Notes under the pieces: model-generated | What the model saw: only the letters and a program-made list of their open reading frames with translations | Databases searched by the model: none | What the model was told of the DNA's origin: nothing | From: an uncultured delta proteobacterium | Lineage (GTDB): Bacteria > Desulfobacterota > Binatia > UBA9968 | Direction: 5' to 3' | Length of the DNA stretch: 64,000 bases | NCBI GenBank assembly: GCA_963745035.1 | Contig: CAVUVW010000013.1 | Location: 224,001-288,000, forward strand | Part shown: piece by piece, positions 29,414 to 34,846 of the stretch | How positions within the stretch are numbered: the stretch's first letter is position 1 | Layout: each line of letters opens with the position of its first letter | Program-made: the position numbers and the translations under genes

Positions 29414-30673
29414 TTACTGGGCCGGACACTTGCCGGCGCTGAGGTGTGCTTCAAAGTCCGCCGGGAATAATTTGATCGCGCTCTCGATCGGCGGACCAGG
29501 CATGGCGATTAAGTTGCAGAAGCCTTTGCCCTTGTTGAAGGCGAGAATTTTTCCGAACTGCTCGAGAATCGGCACGCCGCCCTGCCCGCCCTGGACTTTC
29601 TTGATCAGCATCGCCAGGGTGTTGGTTTCCATGCGGCAGGCGGGACATTGGCCGCAAGATTCGGCGGCGAAGAAATCGGCGATCTTGACGAGCTCCTCGA
29701 CGATGCAGCTCCCTTGAGGAACCAATTTCACCACACCGCAGCCGAGTGCCGAGCCGGCCTCGCGCATGGAATTATGATCGAGCGGGGTGTCGATCTTTTC
29801 CGGCGGTAAAAAAGCCGACGACGGCGCCGCCGGCATGATCGCTTTGATGTTCTTTCCGCCTTTGATGCCGCCGCCGCATTCCTCAATCAAGTAGCGCAGC
29901 GGCGTGCCGAAGGGGAGCTCGTAAACACCCGGGCGGTTGACGTCATCGTCGAGCGAAAAAATCATCGTTCCGGCGCTTTCCGCCGTGCCAAACTTGCGGT
30001 ACCAGTCGGCGCCTTTGAGCATGATCGGCGCAACGTTGGCGAGCGTTTCGACGTTATTTACGGCCGTTGGTTTACCGAATAGACCAACGGTAACGGGGAA
30101 CGGCGGCTTCTGTCGCGGCCAAGGCTTCTTGCCTTCGATAACCTCGAGCACAGCGGTGTCCTCGCCGGCGACGTAGTTATGCGGTGCGGGCACGACTTCG
30201 ATATCGACGGAAAAAGCGCTGCCGAGAACGTTGCCGCCCCAATAACCGGCGGTTTTCGCCTCAGCGAGCGCTTCGTTGATGATTTTGATCGCGACGTCGT
30301 AACGCGCGTTGATGTAAAGATAGGCCTTGTCGGCGCCGACCGCGTAGGCGGCGAGAATGGTTCCTTCGAGCACCAGATGGGGCAGATTTTCGAGCAGCAC
30401 CCGGTCTTTTTTGCTGCCCGGCTCGTCCTCGCCGCCATTCAATACCAGATAGCGCGGCTCGCCCGGCGCTTCGCGCGTGAATTGCCACTTTTTGCCGGTG
30501 GGAAACCCCGCGCCGCCGCGGCCGCGCAGGCCGGCGTCGGTGACGACTTTGATGACTTCTTCGCTGGAGGCTTTGATCGCCTTTTCCAGGGCCTGGTAGC
30601 CGCCGCGAGCGCGATACTGCTCCAGCCCCTCGCGTCCTTCCGGCACGCCGCGAGGGAAAAGAATACCCTCCAT
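29414..30673 (-). CDS. NuoF/HoxF-like NAD(P)H-binding FMN, [4Fe-4S] flavoprotein (stand-alone)
   Basis: GLRGRGGAGFPTG.KW, EPG...DR, Y..GE.TA, NNVETL, SLBB domain, ESCGQCPAC...C. Confidence 0.93.
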   Translation of the reverse strand: MEGILFPRGVPEGREGLEQYRARGGYQALEKAIKASSEEVIKVVTDAGLRGRGGAGFPTGKKWQFTREAPGEPRYLVLNGGEDEPGSKKDRVLLENLPHLVLEGTILAAYAVGADKAYLYINARYDVAIKIINEALAEAKTAGYWGGNVLGSAFSVDIEVVPAPHNYVAGEDTAVLEVIEGKKPWPRQKPPFPVTVGLFGKPTAVNNVETLANVAPIMLKGADWYRKFGTAESAGTMIFSLDDDVNRPGVYELPFGTPLRYLIEECGGGIKGGKNIKAIMPAAPSSAFLPPEKIDTPLDHNSMREAGSALGCGVVKLVPQGSCIVEELVKIADFFAAESCGQCPACRMETNTLAMLIKKVQGGQGGVPILEQFGKILAFNKGKGFCNLIAMPGPPIESAIKLFPADFEAHLSAGKCPAQ

Positions 30674-30676
30674 GAA

Positions 30677-31000
30677 CTAGACCACCCCCGTGTCGAGCAG
30701 TTGATAGATGAGTTCCTTGAGCGATGAGTCGATGGTGTCGAGCCGCTGCACGTGAGGGCCGCCGGCGAGATGTTCGGTAATCTCGTCGAGATCCTCGACT
30801 TTGACCTTGGCGTACCAGTTTTTTTCCGGATAGAGAACGATATTGGGTCCTTCCTGACACGCGCCGAAACACATGTAAGGTTTCACTTCCACGTCGGTCA
30901 AACCCTTGGCCGCGACGCGCTTTTGCAGCTCGCCCATGAGCTGCTCCGCACCGCGCGACTTACAATCGATGTTCTGGCAAACGAGACAGACTCGACTCAC
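30677..31000 (-). CDS. Thioredoxin-like [2Fe-2S] ferredoxin (NuoE C-domain type)
   Basis: CQNIDC ... CFGAC.EGP.IVLYP...WY. Confidence 0.9.
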   Translation of the reverse strand: MSRVCLVCQNIDCKSRGAEQLMGELQKRVAAKGLTDVEVKPYMCFGACQEGPNIVLYPEKNWYAKVKVEDLDEITEHLAGGPHVQRLDTIDSSLKELIYQLLDTGVV

Positions 31001-31054
31001 CGGTGACTCCTTGGGTCTAATTACCTGCGCACAAACCGAGATGCAACAGACTGC

Positions 31055-32161
31055 TCAGTTGAGCTGCATCTGTGACACCCAGTCTTTGCTTTTGATGATC
31101 TCCTCCAGGAGCTTTTCGTCGGCCTCGGTGGGAAGCACCTCGGCGACATGCTTCGCGTAGGCCTCCGCGGAGAGCAACTGGCCGTTGATCCCGTAGGGTT
31201 TCCCCACGTACTCGCCGATCGAGCGATTGAACTTCAGGTCGGGGGCATAGAGCTTCGGCTGATCCGCCGGGATCAACTGATTCAGTTGATCGATCAGCTT
31301 GGCGCTTTCGGCCATGTAATGGCTGCGCGCCAGATCGTTGAGTTTTTCTTTCTCCGCCGGGACTGCCGCTTCGTGCTCATCGATGCGCCCCTTCAGGCCC
31401 CAAGTATAGGCCCAGTGCGCCGACGATGAATGATCGGTGCCGAACAAGTCGTAGGCAGTCGACAGCCATTTGTTAAAATACTTCTGCACGATCGGGACTG
31501 GAATTTTTCCCGCTCGCAAAATGCGCGTCAAACCCGTGTGCCCCGTGAACATGTGAAAGAACTCTTCCTTCAGCATGGCGGTCACGCTTTCGGCCAAAGG
31601 CGCGAAAGCCGAGTGCGAGAGCATGGTCAGCTGATACTTGCCGTCGCGATCGACGAACTCGGTGTAAGTAAAAAAGTCGAGCCAATTCTTGACCGGCGCG
31701 TTGAACGAGCCGAGCAGCCGATCGCCGCGAAAAGCGCGGCGCTCAAGGAGCTTGCGCGCCTCCAATTTGCCGGAATCACCGAAGTATTTCACCAGCAGGT
31801 AGCACATCTGCCAGCCGTGGCGCATTTCCTCACTGTTGACTCGCACCAGCGCCTGGCGGTCGTACTCGGTCGGCGCAGTGTCGAGCAAATTCTTCTGCTG
31901 TTCGACGGAGGCAAACTCGGTATCGCCCTGGTAGACGATCAAGTTCATCAAGGCGTCGCGGATCGATTGATTGGGAATCTGGGTCACCCGATTCCACTTG
32001 GCTTGGCCCCGGTAGTCGCCGAACTCGATATCCTGCGCATGCAGCTCGCCCAGCTTGGTCTCGAAATTGTAGCCGGCGAGTAGTTCCGGGTCGTAGCCGA
32101 TGTCTTTTTGCCACTGTTTGAAATATTCGATCCAGTCTTCAAAAGTCGCGATTTTGGTCAT
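31055..32161 (-). CDS. BoxB/PaaA-family di-iron aryl-CoA epoxidase subunit (368 aa)
   Basis: QGDTEFASVEQQ, EEMRH, DRDGKYQL, EEFFHMFTG; RBS AGGAGAGG before ATG 32161. Confidence 0.88.
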   Translation of the reverse strand: MTKIATFEDWIEYFKQWQKDIGYDPELLAGYNFETKLGELHAQDIEFGDYRGQAKWNRVTQIPNQSIRDALMNLIVYQGDTEFASVEQQKNLLDTAPTEYDRQALVRVNSEEMRHGWQMCYLLVKYFGDSGKLEARKLLERRAFRGDRLLGSFNAPVKNWLDFFTYTEFVDRDGKYQLTMLSHSAFAPLAESVTAMLKEEFFHMFTGHTGLTRILRAGKIPVPIVQKYFNKWLSTAYDLFGTDHSSSAHWAYTWGLKGRIDEHEAAVPAEKEKLNDLARSHYMAESAKLIDQLNQLIPADQPKLYAPDLKFNRSIGEYVGKPYGINGQLLSAEAYAKHVAEVLPTEADEKLLEEIIKSKDWVSQMQLN

Positions 32162-32181
32162 GGCGATCCTCTCCTGCATCA

Positions 32182-32199
32182 TTCGAACGATCGTTCGAA
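32182..32199. promoter_or_regulatory. Perfect 18-bp palindromic operator TTCGAACGATCGTTCGAA (TetR/PaaR-type)
   Basis: Begins 4 nt downstream of the -10 box and covers the predicted transcription start. Confidence 0.8.
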
Positions 32200-32203
32200 C
32201 TTT

Positions 32204-32232
32204 AATGTAACCTGTGCCGCGGGGGAAATCAA
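32204..32232 (-). promoter_or_regulatory. Sigma70 promoter TTGATT-N17-TACATT of the epoxidase operon
   Basis: Plus strand AATCAA 32227-32232 and AATGTA 32204-32209. Confidence 0.7.
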
Positions 32233-32262: not shown

Positions 32263-34659
32263 TCAATGATACATTTCCAGCAGTTCAATGATGCCGAGAT
32301 CGCGCATCTGATTGAAAAGATAGCGCTTGATTTCGCCCATGGTGTCCATTTCGAGCACGATCTCGGCGGTCGCCTTGGCGGTTTGATAGCTGATGGAGCG
32401 AATTGCCTTTTTGACCACCGGCACGTACAGGGAGCCCATGCTGAACTCTTCCAAGCCCATGCCCAAGAGCAGCAAGGCGCTCAGCGGGTCGCCGGCCATT
32501 TCTCCGCACATGGCGATCCGTTTTCCTTCCCGTTTGCCGGCTTCGATGGTCGAGCTCAGAGCGGAGAGGACGGCGGGATGCAAAGGTTCGTAGAGGCTCG
32601 CGACTTTGCGATTGCTGCGATCGACGGCCAAAATGTATTGGATCAGGTCGTTGGTGCCGATGCTCATAAAATCCACTTCGCGGAGAAAGCGCTCGGCAAG
32701 CGCGACGGCCGCGGGGACTTCAACCATGATGCCGAGCTCCATTTGCCGATCGTAGGGCGTGCCCTCGCGCTCGAGCTCGTTCTTGGCTTCGGCGAGGATT
32801 TCTTTCACTTTCAGGATTTCTTCCAGGCTCGAAATCATCGGGATCAGCATACGCACCCGGCCGAGGTCACCGGCGCGGAGAATGGCGCGCAGCTGGGTTT
32901 TGAAAATCTCCTCCACTTCGAGCGATATGCGGATCGAGCGCCAGCCCAGAAACGGGTTCGGCTCGCTCGCCACGCTGCGCATGTACGAGGGATACTTGTC
33001 GGCGCCGATATCCAACGTGCGAATGGTGACCGGTTTGCCGGCCATGCCTTCGACCACTCGGCTGTAAAGCGAAAATTGATCCTCTTCGCTGGGAAAATCG
33101 CGATGCGATAAAAACGGGATTTCGGTTCGGTAAAGCCCGACGCCCTGGGCGCCGTGCAACTGGGCGAACGCGACATCGCTCAACAAGCCGATATTGGCGT
33201 AGAGCGACACACGATGGCCGTCGGTCGTTTCAGCCGGCAGGTTTTTCAGCCCCCCCAGCTCGCGATTCAGCTCGGCGTAGTCGCGCCCCAGACGGTCGTA
33301 TTCGCGAATCACCTCCGGATTGGGATTGACGTGGATGCTGCCGGCGTTGCCGTCGATGATCAGCATGTCGCCCTGATGAACCGATTCCATGAGATCTTCA
33401 ATCGCGACCACGCTGGGAATCTCGAAAGACTTGGCCAGGATCGAAGCGTGCGAAGTCACGCCGCCGGTGGCGAGCGCAATGCCGCGGAACTTGTCGCCCT
33501 CGAGCATGCTCAAATCGGCGGGGGAAAGATCCTCGGCCACCAGGATGGCGTCGTCCGGAATAGCGTACTGCTGGCCCGGCATGCCGGTGAGGTTTTCGAG
33601 GAGCCGCTGGGCGGCGTCTTTTACGTCGGTGGTGCGCTCGCGCAGATAGTCGTCGTCGATATTGGCGATGGATTTCAGATACTGCTCGAAGACGACCTTG
33701 ACGGCATATTCGGCGACGCTCCCTTCTTCGACAATGCGCGCTTCGATCTGCTGGATGATGGCGGGATCTTCGAGAATCAATCGATACACGTCGAAGATCG
33801 CGCTTTCCTCCTTGGAGATCAGGTGGTGCATGCGATTTTTAACGACGTTGATCTGCTCGATGCCGCGCTCCACCGCGCCGCGAAAACGCTCGCGCTCGCG
33901 CTCCGGATTGCGCGCTTTTTTCTTTTGGATCGCGCTCAAATCCATGCGCGGCTCGAGCACGAAAGCTTTGCCCCGGCCAAAGCCCGGCGAAGCCGCCAGG
34001 CCGCCCAGGCGGCCGCGAAAGTGCTGCCGGGATTTCGCCGCCTTGTCGCGGCGCACGCCTTCGTAGGAGCGCAGCTTGCGCATCGCCTCGTTCATGCGCT
34101 TTTGAAAACTCTTGCGCTCCTGTTCCTTAGTTTTGAGCGAGTCGACGAGACGGGCCTGGACGATGATGCTCGTGGCCTGCGCCGAGATGGTCGTGAGCAG
34201 CCGTATCTCATCCCGCGCGAATTCGCGGCGGCGGGAAGTTTGGACGACCAAGACTCCGAGAGGCAGTTTGCGCTCGATCAGCGGCACTCCCAAAAAAGAA
34301 TGAAAGTGTTCCTCATGGGTTTCCGGAAAGTATTTGTAGCGCGGATGGGCCAGCGTATCGGCGACCATCACCGGCTTCATCCGCTCGATCACCAAGCCGG
34401 TCAAGCCCTCGCCGGTGCCCATCGACACTTTATCGACCGATTCCGGGTCCAGGCCCCGGGTGGCACGCAAGGTGAGGCGCTTTTTGTCGCGATCCAGAAT
34501 GTAGATCGAACAGACTTCGGTCTGCATGCGGTCGGCCACAGTGGCGACGATGCTGTCGAGGGTTTCCTGCAAGTCGTGAGAATGGCTGATGAGAGTGCTG
34601 ATATCCTCGAGGATATCGAGGTGAGGGCGGATCTTGCGAGTTTTTTTCGTCGCTGCCAT
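32263..34659 (-). CDS. ptsP: Phosphoenolpyruvate-protein phosphotransferase with N-terminal GAF domain (EI-Ntr)
   Basis: GAF (GEGLTGLV, FLGVPL), GVTSHASI phospho-His, GLYRTE, SIGTNDL, MCGEMAGD. Confidence 0.93.
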   Translation of the reverse strand: MAATKKTRKIRPHLDILEDISTLISHSHDLQETLDSIVATVADRMQTEVCSIYILDRDKKRLTLRATRGLDPESVDKVSMGTGEGLTGLVIERMKPVMVADTLAHPRYKYFPETHEEHFHSFLGVPLIERKLPLGVLVVQTSRRREFARDEIRLLTTISAQATSIIVQARLVDSLKTKEQERKSFQKRMNEAMRKLRSYEGVRRDKAAKSRQHFRGRLGGLAASPGFGRGKAFVLEPRMDLSAIQKKKARNPERERERFRGAVERGIEQINVVKNRMHHLISKEESAIFDVYRLILEDPAIIQQIEARIVEEGSVAEYAVKVVFEQYLKSIANIDDDYLRERTTDVKDAAQRLLENLTGMPGQQYAIPDDAILVAEDLSPADLSMLEGDKFRGIALATGGVTSHASILAKSFEIPSVVAIEDLMESVHQGDMLIIDGNAGSIHVNPNPEVIREYDRLGRDYAELNRELGGLKNLPAETTDGHRVSLYANIGLLSDVAFAQLHGAQGVGLYRTEIPFLSHRDFPSEEDQFSLYSRVVEGMAGKPVTIRTLDIGADKYPSYMRSVASEPNPFLGWRSIRISLEVEEIFKTQLRAILRAGDLGRVRMLIPMISSLEEILKVKEILAEAKNELEREGTPYDRQMELGIMVEVPAAVALAERFLREVDFMSIGTNDLIQYILAVDRSNRKVASLYEPLHPAVLSALSSTIEAGKREGKRIAMCGEMAGDPLSALLLLGMGLEEFSMGSLYVPVVKKAIRSISYQTAKATAEIVLEMDTMGEIKRYLFNQMRDLGIIELLEMYH

Positions 34660-34846
34660 GAGGTAGAAGAACCAAATATTCTTTAGAACACAATTTGTGA
34701 AATTCCGCCAGCGACGTTGAATGAACTGAGCGATATCCGGGCGATGGCGGAGCGTTGCCGCGGCGCGTCGAACGCCATTTATGGCGGGAACCGGCATGAC
34801 CGGGCGCCAAACCACGAAGCGCTTGGCCTGCAATCGCCCGCGGTTG

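Follow-up and report, generated by a model that had tools for sequence, protein, structure and literature searches.

A compact three-gene cassette, in which a BoxB-like di-iron oxygenase stands beside a reductase pair of the complex I type, has been identified in a stretch of DNA from an uncultured delta proteobacterium (Bacteria; Desulfobacterota; Binatia; UBA9968). The stretch, which is called the window below, comprises 64,000 nucleotides (contig CAVUVW010000013.1 of assembly GCA_963745035.1, positions 224,001 to 288,000 of the forward strand), and coordinates given without the name of a contig or locus refer to it. Here, we propose, with a probability of roughly 60%, that the three genes form one operon under repressor control and encode a three-component, O2-dependent oxygenase of aryl-coenzyme A (aryl-CoA) rings, with benzoyl-CoA or a near analogue as the most likely substrate. 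The features of the cassette are as follows.

31055-32161, minus strand: short BoxB-like di-iron oxygenase of 368 aa (reading frame open from 32182), from profile matches and a fold model
30677-31000, minus strand: thioredoxin-like [2Fe-2S] ferredoxin of 107 aa with a GTG start, corresponding to the C-terminal domain of NuoE only
29414-30673, minus strand: NuoF-like flavoprotein of 419 aa with flavin mononucleotide (FMN) and [4Fe-4S] sites, without extra N- or C-terminal domains
32204-32232, minus strand: promoter-like pair, TTGATT (32227-32232) and TACATT (32204-32209) with a 17-nt spacer, read from the sequence
32182-32199, both strands: perfect 18-bp palindrome TTCGAACGATCGTTCGAA, read from the sequence; it lies over the predicted transcription start and may be the operator of a repressor

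The first-pass annotation, made from the letters of the window and its reading frames, had described three co-oriented genes with gaps of 54 nt and 3 nt, and this arrangement is reproduced by the open reading frames at 31055-32182, 30677-31000 and 29414-30673 on the minus strand. The most likely start codon of the oxygenase is ATG 32161, because a ribosome-binding site, AGGAGAGG, lies at 32168-32175, 7 nt 5' of this codon, and nearly all relatives have 368 aa. The motifs listed in that annotation could also be recovered. GDTE, EEMRH, DRDG and EEFFH all occur in the translation from ATG 32161, the Cx4C...Cx3C pattern of the ferredoxin is present as C8x4C13 and C44x3C48, and the flavoprotein is complete, with GRGGAG, CGQCPAC and a later GFC as well as matches to Complex1_51K, SLBB and NADH_4Fe-4S. 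The only other NuoF-family matches found on the contig by profile search fall outside the window. Contigs from four RNA libraries of three studies, 90-99% alike, cover all three genes, and one of them, with 1146 nt (30366-31504), crosses both gene junctions. These contigs are taken as a weak hint only: they may contain DNA, a contig over two genes is no proof of a single transcript, and regions without coverage are meaningless.

The oxygenase matches the Pfam family PaaA_PaaC (43.6 bits), and its best curated model is BoxB (TIGR03225), whereas the PaaA model (TIGR02156) gives 41.2 bits against a cut-off of 280. The closest solved relative is BoxB 3per (E = 5e-52, phmmer against the PDB). The AlphaFold model, based on an alignment of 64 rows, has a mean predicted local distance difference test score (pLDDT) of 94.6, and the query-normalised template-modelling (TM) scores given by Foldseek are 0.88-0.89 for BoxB (3pm5, 3q1g, 3pf7) and 0.51-0.54 for PaaA. 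The target-normalised scores for BoxB, 0.69-0.70, are lower because BoxB is about 100 residues longer. According to PMC5489048, the iron ligands of BoxB are E120, E150, H153, D211, E240 and H243, and the benzoyl group is oriented by Q116, T119, S123, F193, F203 or F206, and T210. In the alignment to 3PER, where the numbering fits, all six ligands are identical in the oxygenase, and they are invariant over the 64 rows. The benzoyl pocket is kept at five of seven positions (Q116, T119, S123, F193 and F203); F206 is replaced by Tyr, which is conserved in at least 90% of the short family in the same alignment, and T210 by Val.

The two other genes encode what would be the reductase. The ferredoxin matches PF01257 with 31.6 bits against a gathering threshold of 24.8, over profile positions 68-144 of 145, and the NuoE equivalog models score 16-32 bits with cut-offs of 141-280. 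Across 36 orthologues, its cysteines C8, C13, C44 and C48 show no variation, and the tail LKELIYQLLDTG shows little or none. The flavoprotein reaches 411.1 bits with nuoF_fam (TIGR01959; cut-off 558.65), and GRGGAGFP, GEDEPGS.KDR, YVAGED and NNVET, together with C340, C343, C346 and C386, are invariant in 35 NuoF-like orthologues. We take these motifs to bind FMN and NADH, and the four cysteines presumably hold the N3 [4Fe-4S] cluster. Among the PDB matches, NfnB, HydB and NuoF of complex I are about equal (338-358 bits). The NuoF-like proteins form a group of their own: those of the cassettes are 63-87% identical among themselves and 67-87% identical to the query in five other genomes, versus 39-43% between the cassette protein and the other NuoF paralogues of the same genomes. 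Therefore, as judged from identity, the cassette protein is a distinct orthologous group and no displaced complex I subunit. A complex prediction of the three chains, with the oxygenase as the scored partner, gave a score of 0.00, which speaks neither for nor against binding.

The linkage of the three genes is conserved, as the first-pass annotation had anticipated. A scan with one genome per species yielded 80 loci, mostly from Candidatus Binatia, in which the oxygenase is 71-88% identical to the query, and the ferredoxin and NuoF-like genes lie directly 3' of it wherever the contig continues; the gap between the latter two is 3-15 nt. A metagenome scan seeded with distant family members added 80 further loci. 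Among the 160 loci in all, 73 have the order oxygenase, ferredoxin, NuoF-like gene, eight have the first two genes up to the contig end, and 73 have the oxygenase alone, the last being almost wholly from a sister clade described below. We also surveyed 301 genomes, sampled evenly from the class to which the window belongs, with thresholds of E <= 1e-60 for BoxB-like and E <= 1e-120 for NuoF-like proteins. A BoxB-like match occurs in 58 of them and a NuoF-like orthologue in 46, all in the window's own order (22/25 genomes of family f1, 20/21 of f99 and 3/3 of f100). In 38 of the 46, a BoxB-like match lies on the same contig at most about 1.6 kb away. The short BoxB family as a whole is present in 48 of the 49 sampled genomes of the order and is abundant in soil metagenomes, where at least 6000 matches were scored by a word-index search.

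The origin of this linkage was explored with two trees. In a FastTree phylogeny of 70 rows, all NuoF-linked oxygenases fall into one clade (support 91), next to which stands an ECH-linked clade with a support of 81. A smaller IQ-TREE phylogeny supports a core NuoF-linked clade (SH-aLRT 98%), but in it loci L157 and L113 branch at the base of the entire short family. Since the two trees disagree on these loci, a single origin of the oxygenase/NuoF-like linkage is possible, no more, as far as the sequences go.

The genome of the window (92.6% complete, 5.8% contamination) was then searched for conventional partners. The best matches to BoxA, BoxC and PaaE have 33, 74 and 46.8 bits against cut-offs of 459, 712 and 420.8, respectively, so that none of the three was found in this genome, in accordance with the prediction that no canonical boxA or paaE serves the oxygenase. 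TIGR03225 likewise gives no match above its cut-off in the genome. A separate nuo operon had also been predicted, and one is located on contig C13 (L103) at about 302-309.5 kb, about 18 kb past the window end, with NuoC, D, E, F, G, H and K domains. In this operon (about 302000-309500), NuoD is in two pieces, and so is NuoF, with one TGA; the split reading frames suggest frameshifts of the long-read assembly or pseudogenes. A third form of NuoF, a fused NuoE-NuoF of 574 aa on contig C17 (about 105700-112300; L104), adjoins a 717-aa molybdopterin oxidoreductase and an AOR-family gene, and this cluster could be formate-dehydrogenase-like or Bam-like (class II benzoyl-CoA reductase).

The proposed repressor control rests on the 100-nt intergenic region between the stop of the upstream PtsP-like gene (32263) and the oxygenase start. 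The 18-bp palindrome TTCGAACGATCGTTCGAA occurs once in the 7.4-Mb genome, the next best site having three mismatches. When counted at no more than three mismatches over 16 fixed positions, it is present in 78 of the 80 NuoF-linked loci whose upstream sequence extends over 120 nt or more, 12-48 nt 5' of the start codon. In these loci, the half-sites are nearly invariant and the central dinucleotide varies freely. Together with the position, this pattern is the signature expected of the operator of a dimeric repressor over the predicted transcription start. The first-pass annotation had assigned the cassette its own promoter, and a conserved promoter-like pair does lie in this region, shortly after the stop of the PtsP-like gene. 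Most of the 80 upstream regions compared show, 5' of the palindrome, a layout of TTGATT or TTGACT followed by TATAAA or TAAAAT. A consensus promoter scan left the pair of the cassette unscored: TTGATT-17-TACATT matches at 8 of 12 positions, nine being needed. An SOS box was also considered for the palindrome, whose CGAAC-N4-GTTCG core recalls the LexA box of Gram-positive bacteria; it was rejected on two grounds: the full palindrome has no second copy in the genome, and no regulon emerges from the 11 sites of the loose motif.

The palindrome links the cassette to a second type of operon. About 65 metagenome loci (within L105-L184, for example, L150, L162, L171 and L135) encode a 391-aa short BoxB that is 53-63% identical to that of the window. 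These sister loci have neither the ferredoxin nor the NuoF-like gene and encode no reductase for the di-iron protein, and no characterised operon of this kind came up in the literature searched. Their usual order is TetR, crotonase, aldehyde dehydrogenase, short BoxB, CoA-transferase subunit, crotonase, CoA-transferase subunit, rhodanese, and the small, large and FAD subunits of an XDH-type enzyme, often with DHDPS-family and carboxylase-like genes upstream. The large subunit of the XDH-type enzyme exceeds the curated cut-off for the alpha subunit of 4-hydroxybenzoyl-CoA reductase (Hcr; 1021 vs. 994.55 bits), and for the beta and gamma subunits this enzyme is the best or second-best match, under the cut-off. 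The product of 4-hydroxybenzoyl-CoA reductase is benzoyl-CoA. The same palindrome, with the centre AA, lies at the start of the TetR gene in 23 of 25 sister-clade loci. Consequently, the cassette appears to be tied to aryl-CoA metabolism by an operator common to both operon types. The two types share the short oxygenase family, the pocket and the 18-bp palindrome, whereas the sister operons have downstream enzymes and TetR in cis and no reductase pair, and the window cassette has the reductase pair in cis and the rest in trans. In locus L157, a crotonase, a short BoxB (60% identical), a ferredoxin (55%) and a NuoF-like gene (55%) stand in a row, which joins the crotonase and reductase-pair contexts.

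Pieces of a corresponding pathway are found elsewhere in the window's genome. At C14:1023130-1023906 there is a crotonase that shares 71% identity with the one in L157 and 56-57% with the first crotonase in the sister operons, and it is followed by an aldehyde dehydrogenase. A crotonase of this type (E <= 1e-85) occurs in 52 of the 301 class genomes, and 51 of these 52 also have a BoxB-like match, the two genes being adjacent in genus g225; these counts come from a handful of related lineages and carry no statistical test. Two benzoate-CoA ligase matches exceed the cut-off of 375 (805.6 and 591.7 bits), one of them beside ABC-transporter genes. Subunits A and B of class I benzoyl-CoA reductase were not found in the genome. 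The genome encodes just one close homologue of the sister-clade TetR, at C25:32002-32574; it is 44% identical, with a nearly identical helix-turn-helix, has no palindrome nearby and adjoins other crotonases. That this homologue might be the repressor of the cassette is a guess.

From these observations, we infer a scheme for the substrate, the direction and route of the electrons, the repressor and the downstream enzymes. A compact 368-aa BoxB-type epoxidase would receive its electrons from a soluble chain that was taken over from the NADH-input module of complex I and hydrogenases. The FMN of the NuoF-like protein would be reduced by NAD(P)H, and the electrons would travel on through the [4Fe-4S] cluster of this protein and/or straight to the NuoE-type [2Fe-2S] ferredoxin. 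The ferredoxin would then reduce the di-iron centre, where O2 would be activated and benzoyl-CoA or a near analogue epoxidised. A TetR-type repressor encoded elsewhere would probably sit on the palindrome until an aromatic CoA ester appears, and the reactive product may be handled by the crotonase and aldehyde dehydrogenase at about 1.02 Mb on C14.

A number of observations weigh against this reading, and they are given here with the alternatives on which they bear. With TIGR03225, the oxygenase scores 239.1 bits, far under the cut-off of 499.1, and it lacks about 100 residues of BoxB (368 vs. about 470 aa). Missing are about 35 residues at the N terminus, an insertion of some 20 residues that follows the fourth ligand helix, and portions of the C-terminal region. 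The C14 aldehyde dehydrogenase shares only 40% identity with its sister-clade counterpart. AOR-family genes are present in the genome, and given these, a class II benzoyl-CoA reductase may provide an alternative route. The same enzyme system could act on a substrate other than benzoyl-CoA, or without ring epoxidation, for example, on a substituted aryl-CoA, a heteroaryl-CoA or another thioester. Besides the short length and low score, the absence of BoxC and the two changed pocket residues, with Tyr widely conserved at one of them, would fit such a substrate, and many genomes of the order carry two diverged BoxB-like paralogues, one with at least 70% and the other with about 57-61% identity to the query, a pattern that points to different specificities. 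Nevertheless, we regard this alternative as unlikely, with the five kept pocket residues, among them Gln116, the binder of the thioester carbonyl, with the 4-hydroxybenzoyl-CoA reductase of the sister operons and with the benzoate-CoA ligases of the genome on the other side. The aryl-CoA epoxidase named in the first-pass annotation is thus supported by the pocket, by the sister operons of CoA-ester and Hcr type and by the common operator, and its substrate is a prediction from these features.

The reductase pair raises a different question. In eight of the 46 genomes with the NuoF-like orthologue, all from genus g209, there is no BoxB-like neighbour. Four of these loci were inspected (L192-L195, from G665, G633, G761 and G577). 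The ferredoxin and NuoF-like genes are intact, and the oxygenase and the palindrome are gone, apart from a 56-aa C-terminal remnant of the oxygenase at 6810-6977 of L192. A second BoxB-like paralogue, about 59% identical, lies about 160-180 kb off in such genomes. Since these genomes keep the pair alone, the module is not strictly tied to the adjacent oxygenase; the pair has, or for a time keeps, a use without the cassette oxygenase and can outlive its neighbour. A further point against the proposed chain is that the ferredoxin is without the N-terminal helical domain of NuoE, which contributes to the NuoE-NuoF interface. Alternatively, the pair could be an independent NAD(P)H:ferredoxin module with other acceptors as well, its adjacency to the oxygenase reflecting co-regulation and no exclusive partnership. 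Candidate acceptors are the second BoxB-like paralogue, Hcr-like reductases and other ferredoxin-dependent enzymes, and the window's genome has an Hcr-alpha-like gene (829 bits), many XDH-family enzymes and a second thioredoxin-like ferredoxin. Against this, the pair lies directly 3' of the oxygenase in 38 of the 46 genomes with gaps of a few bases, the NuoF-like orthologue occurs in the class sample only in the order with the cassette-type oxygenase, and the sole more distant copy found, in L157, also follows a BoxB-like gene, and we consider a free-standing module to be improbable. The recruited reductase chain of the first-pass annotation thus draws support from the linkage, the missing BoxA and PaaE, the separate nuo operon and the distinct NuoF group, with the persistence of the pair in the eight genomes counting against an exclusive partnership.

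Finally, the near neighbours of the cassette, a PtsP-like enzyme, a polysaccharide-deacetylase family protein and a solute-binding protein, suggest no aromatic pathway. Ferritin-like di-iron proteins include reducers of O2, H2O2 and NO, and in the light of this poor context, the di-iron protein might be no substrate oxygenase, but an NADH-driven reducer of one of these (rubrerythrin- or oxidase-like), or its adjacency might be meaningless. Such readings are very improbable in our view, given the conserved BoxB-type substrate pocket, the operator common to aryl-CoA operons and the co-occurrence of the di-iron protein with a specific crotonase (51 of 52 crotonase genomes); moreover, the conserved order in 73 complete cassettes argues against chance adjacency.

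The proposed aryl-CoA oxygenase can be compared with several known systems. BoxA of the BoxAB system is a single FAD/[4Fe-4S] protein that uses NADPH, and in its place the cassette has, as the presumed reductase, a NuoF-type FMN/[4Fe-4S] protein with a separate [2Fe-2S] ferredoxin. Benzoyl-CoA 2,3-epoxidase BoxAB of Azoarcus/Aromatoleum evansii (3PER, 3PF7, 3PM5, 3Q1G) has the same fold, iron ligands and five of the seven pocket residues; however, the window oxygenase is shorter and under the BoxB cut-off, and BoxA and BoxC are missing from its genome. Control also appears to differ, the cassette having a TetR-type operator in place of BoxR, which is named in PMC10803450. The phenylacetyl-CoA 1,2-epoxidase PaaABC(D)E belongs to the same Pfam family, PaaA_PaaC, and is likewise a di-iron oxygenase acting on an aryl-CoA, but the match is far weaker (41.2 vs. 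280 bits; TM 0.51-0.54) and the genome has no FNR-type PaaE. The NuoE/NuoF input module of complex I, HoxFU, formate dehydrogenase (Fdh) beta/gamma and HydBC/NfnABC of the Bfu family has the same FMN, NADH and N3 motifs and the NuoE-type cluster site. In contrast, NuoG-like, hydrogenase and Fdh partners are absent from the cassette operon, as are extra ferredoxin domains, and the neighbour is an O2-activating di-iron protein. A NuoEF-type case already linked to aromatic CoA metabolism is BamGHI of class II benzoyl-CoA reductase.

To our knowledge, the electron donors of the known bacterial di-iron oxygenases are FNR-type reductases, Rieske or plant-type ferredoxins, or rubredoxin. For these enzymes, the combination of a NuoF-type FMN/[4Fe-4S] flavoprotein and a NuoE-type ferredoxin would make up a new reductase class, and would show that the NADH-input module of complex I and hydrogenases has been reused for oxygen chemistry. 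No BoxB-type or other di-iron oxygenase paired with a NuoF-type reductase was found by full-text search of a literature from which subscription journals and supplements are largely absent, and within that literature the statement that the architecture had no earlier description stands. What is new here is the operator common to both operon types, the class-wide counts, the genomes that have lost the oxygenase and the co-distributed crotonase. The common operator offers a direct experimental handle on the inducer and, via the inducer, on the substrate. Because the family is so abundant in soil and in the order, the part of these uncultured bacteria in the turnover of plant-derived aromatic acids may be misjudged by annotation that seeks BoxA and BoxC. 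A wider scheme can be offered only tentatively, as we hold it somewhat less probable than its opposite. The short BoxB would mark a widespread, unstudied route for aromatic acids in soil, in which one conserved TetR operator governs both the ring-opening operons and, in the Binatia-like order, a dedicated NADH-driven NuoF/ferredoxin reductase. This reductase might serve in trans more than one oxygenase and perhaps 4-hydroxybenzoyl-CoA reductase. Should this scheme be true, it would be the first complex-I-type NADH-input module recruited for O2 activation at a di-iron centre.

Some further features of the genome and the relatives are listed here. The model for the alpha subunit of 4-hydroxybenzoyl-CoA reductase gives 77 match pieces in the genome, corresponding to at least about 20 full-length large subunits of the XDH/CODH family, and this molybdenum hydroxylase expansion is unusually large. 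The best Hcr-alpha-like gene, with the 829 bits mentioned above, is located at C11:21598-23832 with 2Fe-2S and FAD subunits alongside. In the region C16:42592-44844 (6592-8844 of L187), the second thioredoxin-like [2Fe-2S] ferredoxin, in a reading frame of 174 aa and 53% identical to the ferredoxin of L157, is encoded upstream of two further proteins, a bicupin of 389 aa and a binding protein of the NMT1/THI5-like type. The second BoxB-like paralogue (57-61%) was inspected in two genomes (9748-10923 of L189, from G725, and L188, from G769), where its neighbours match no protein of the sister operons; a palindrome-like site, TACGAACGTCCGTTCTAA, lies 5' of the paralogue in L189. An in-frame TGA was flagged in NuoF-like genes of one genus, and selenocysteine was considered and rejected for the one copy that was aligned (G761), where this TGA is the normal stop, which comes about 10 residues earlier than the end of the query.

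As to the immediate neighbourhood, the PtsP-like protein (32263-34833, minus strand), with GAF and PEP-utilising enzyme I domains, is encoded directly upstream of the cassette. Its gene is kept there in 51 of the 80 genome loci according to the reading-frame search with the window, and in 54, including the window, by de novo clustering; the adjacency is probably synteny with no shared function. The conserved flanking genes also include those of a radical SAM protein, a glyoxalase-family protein and a Leu/Phe-tRNA transferase, and look like plain synteny as well. A deacetylase is encoded beside the cassette and another beside the C14 crotonase; they are only 29% identical to each other, and no link was drawn between the two sites.

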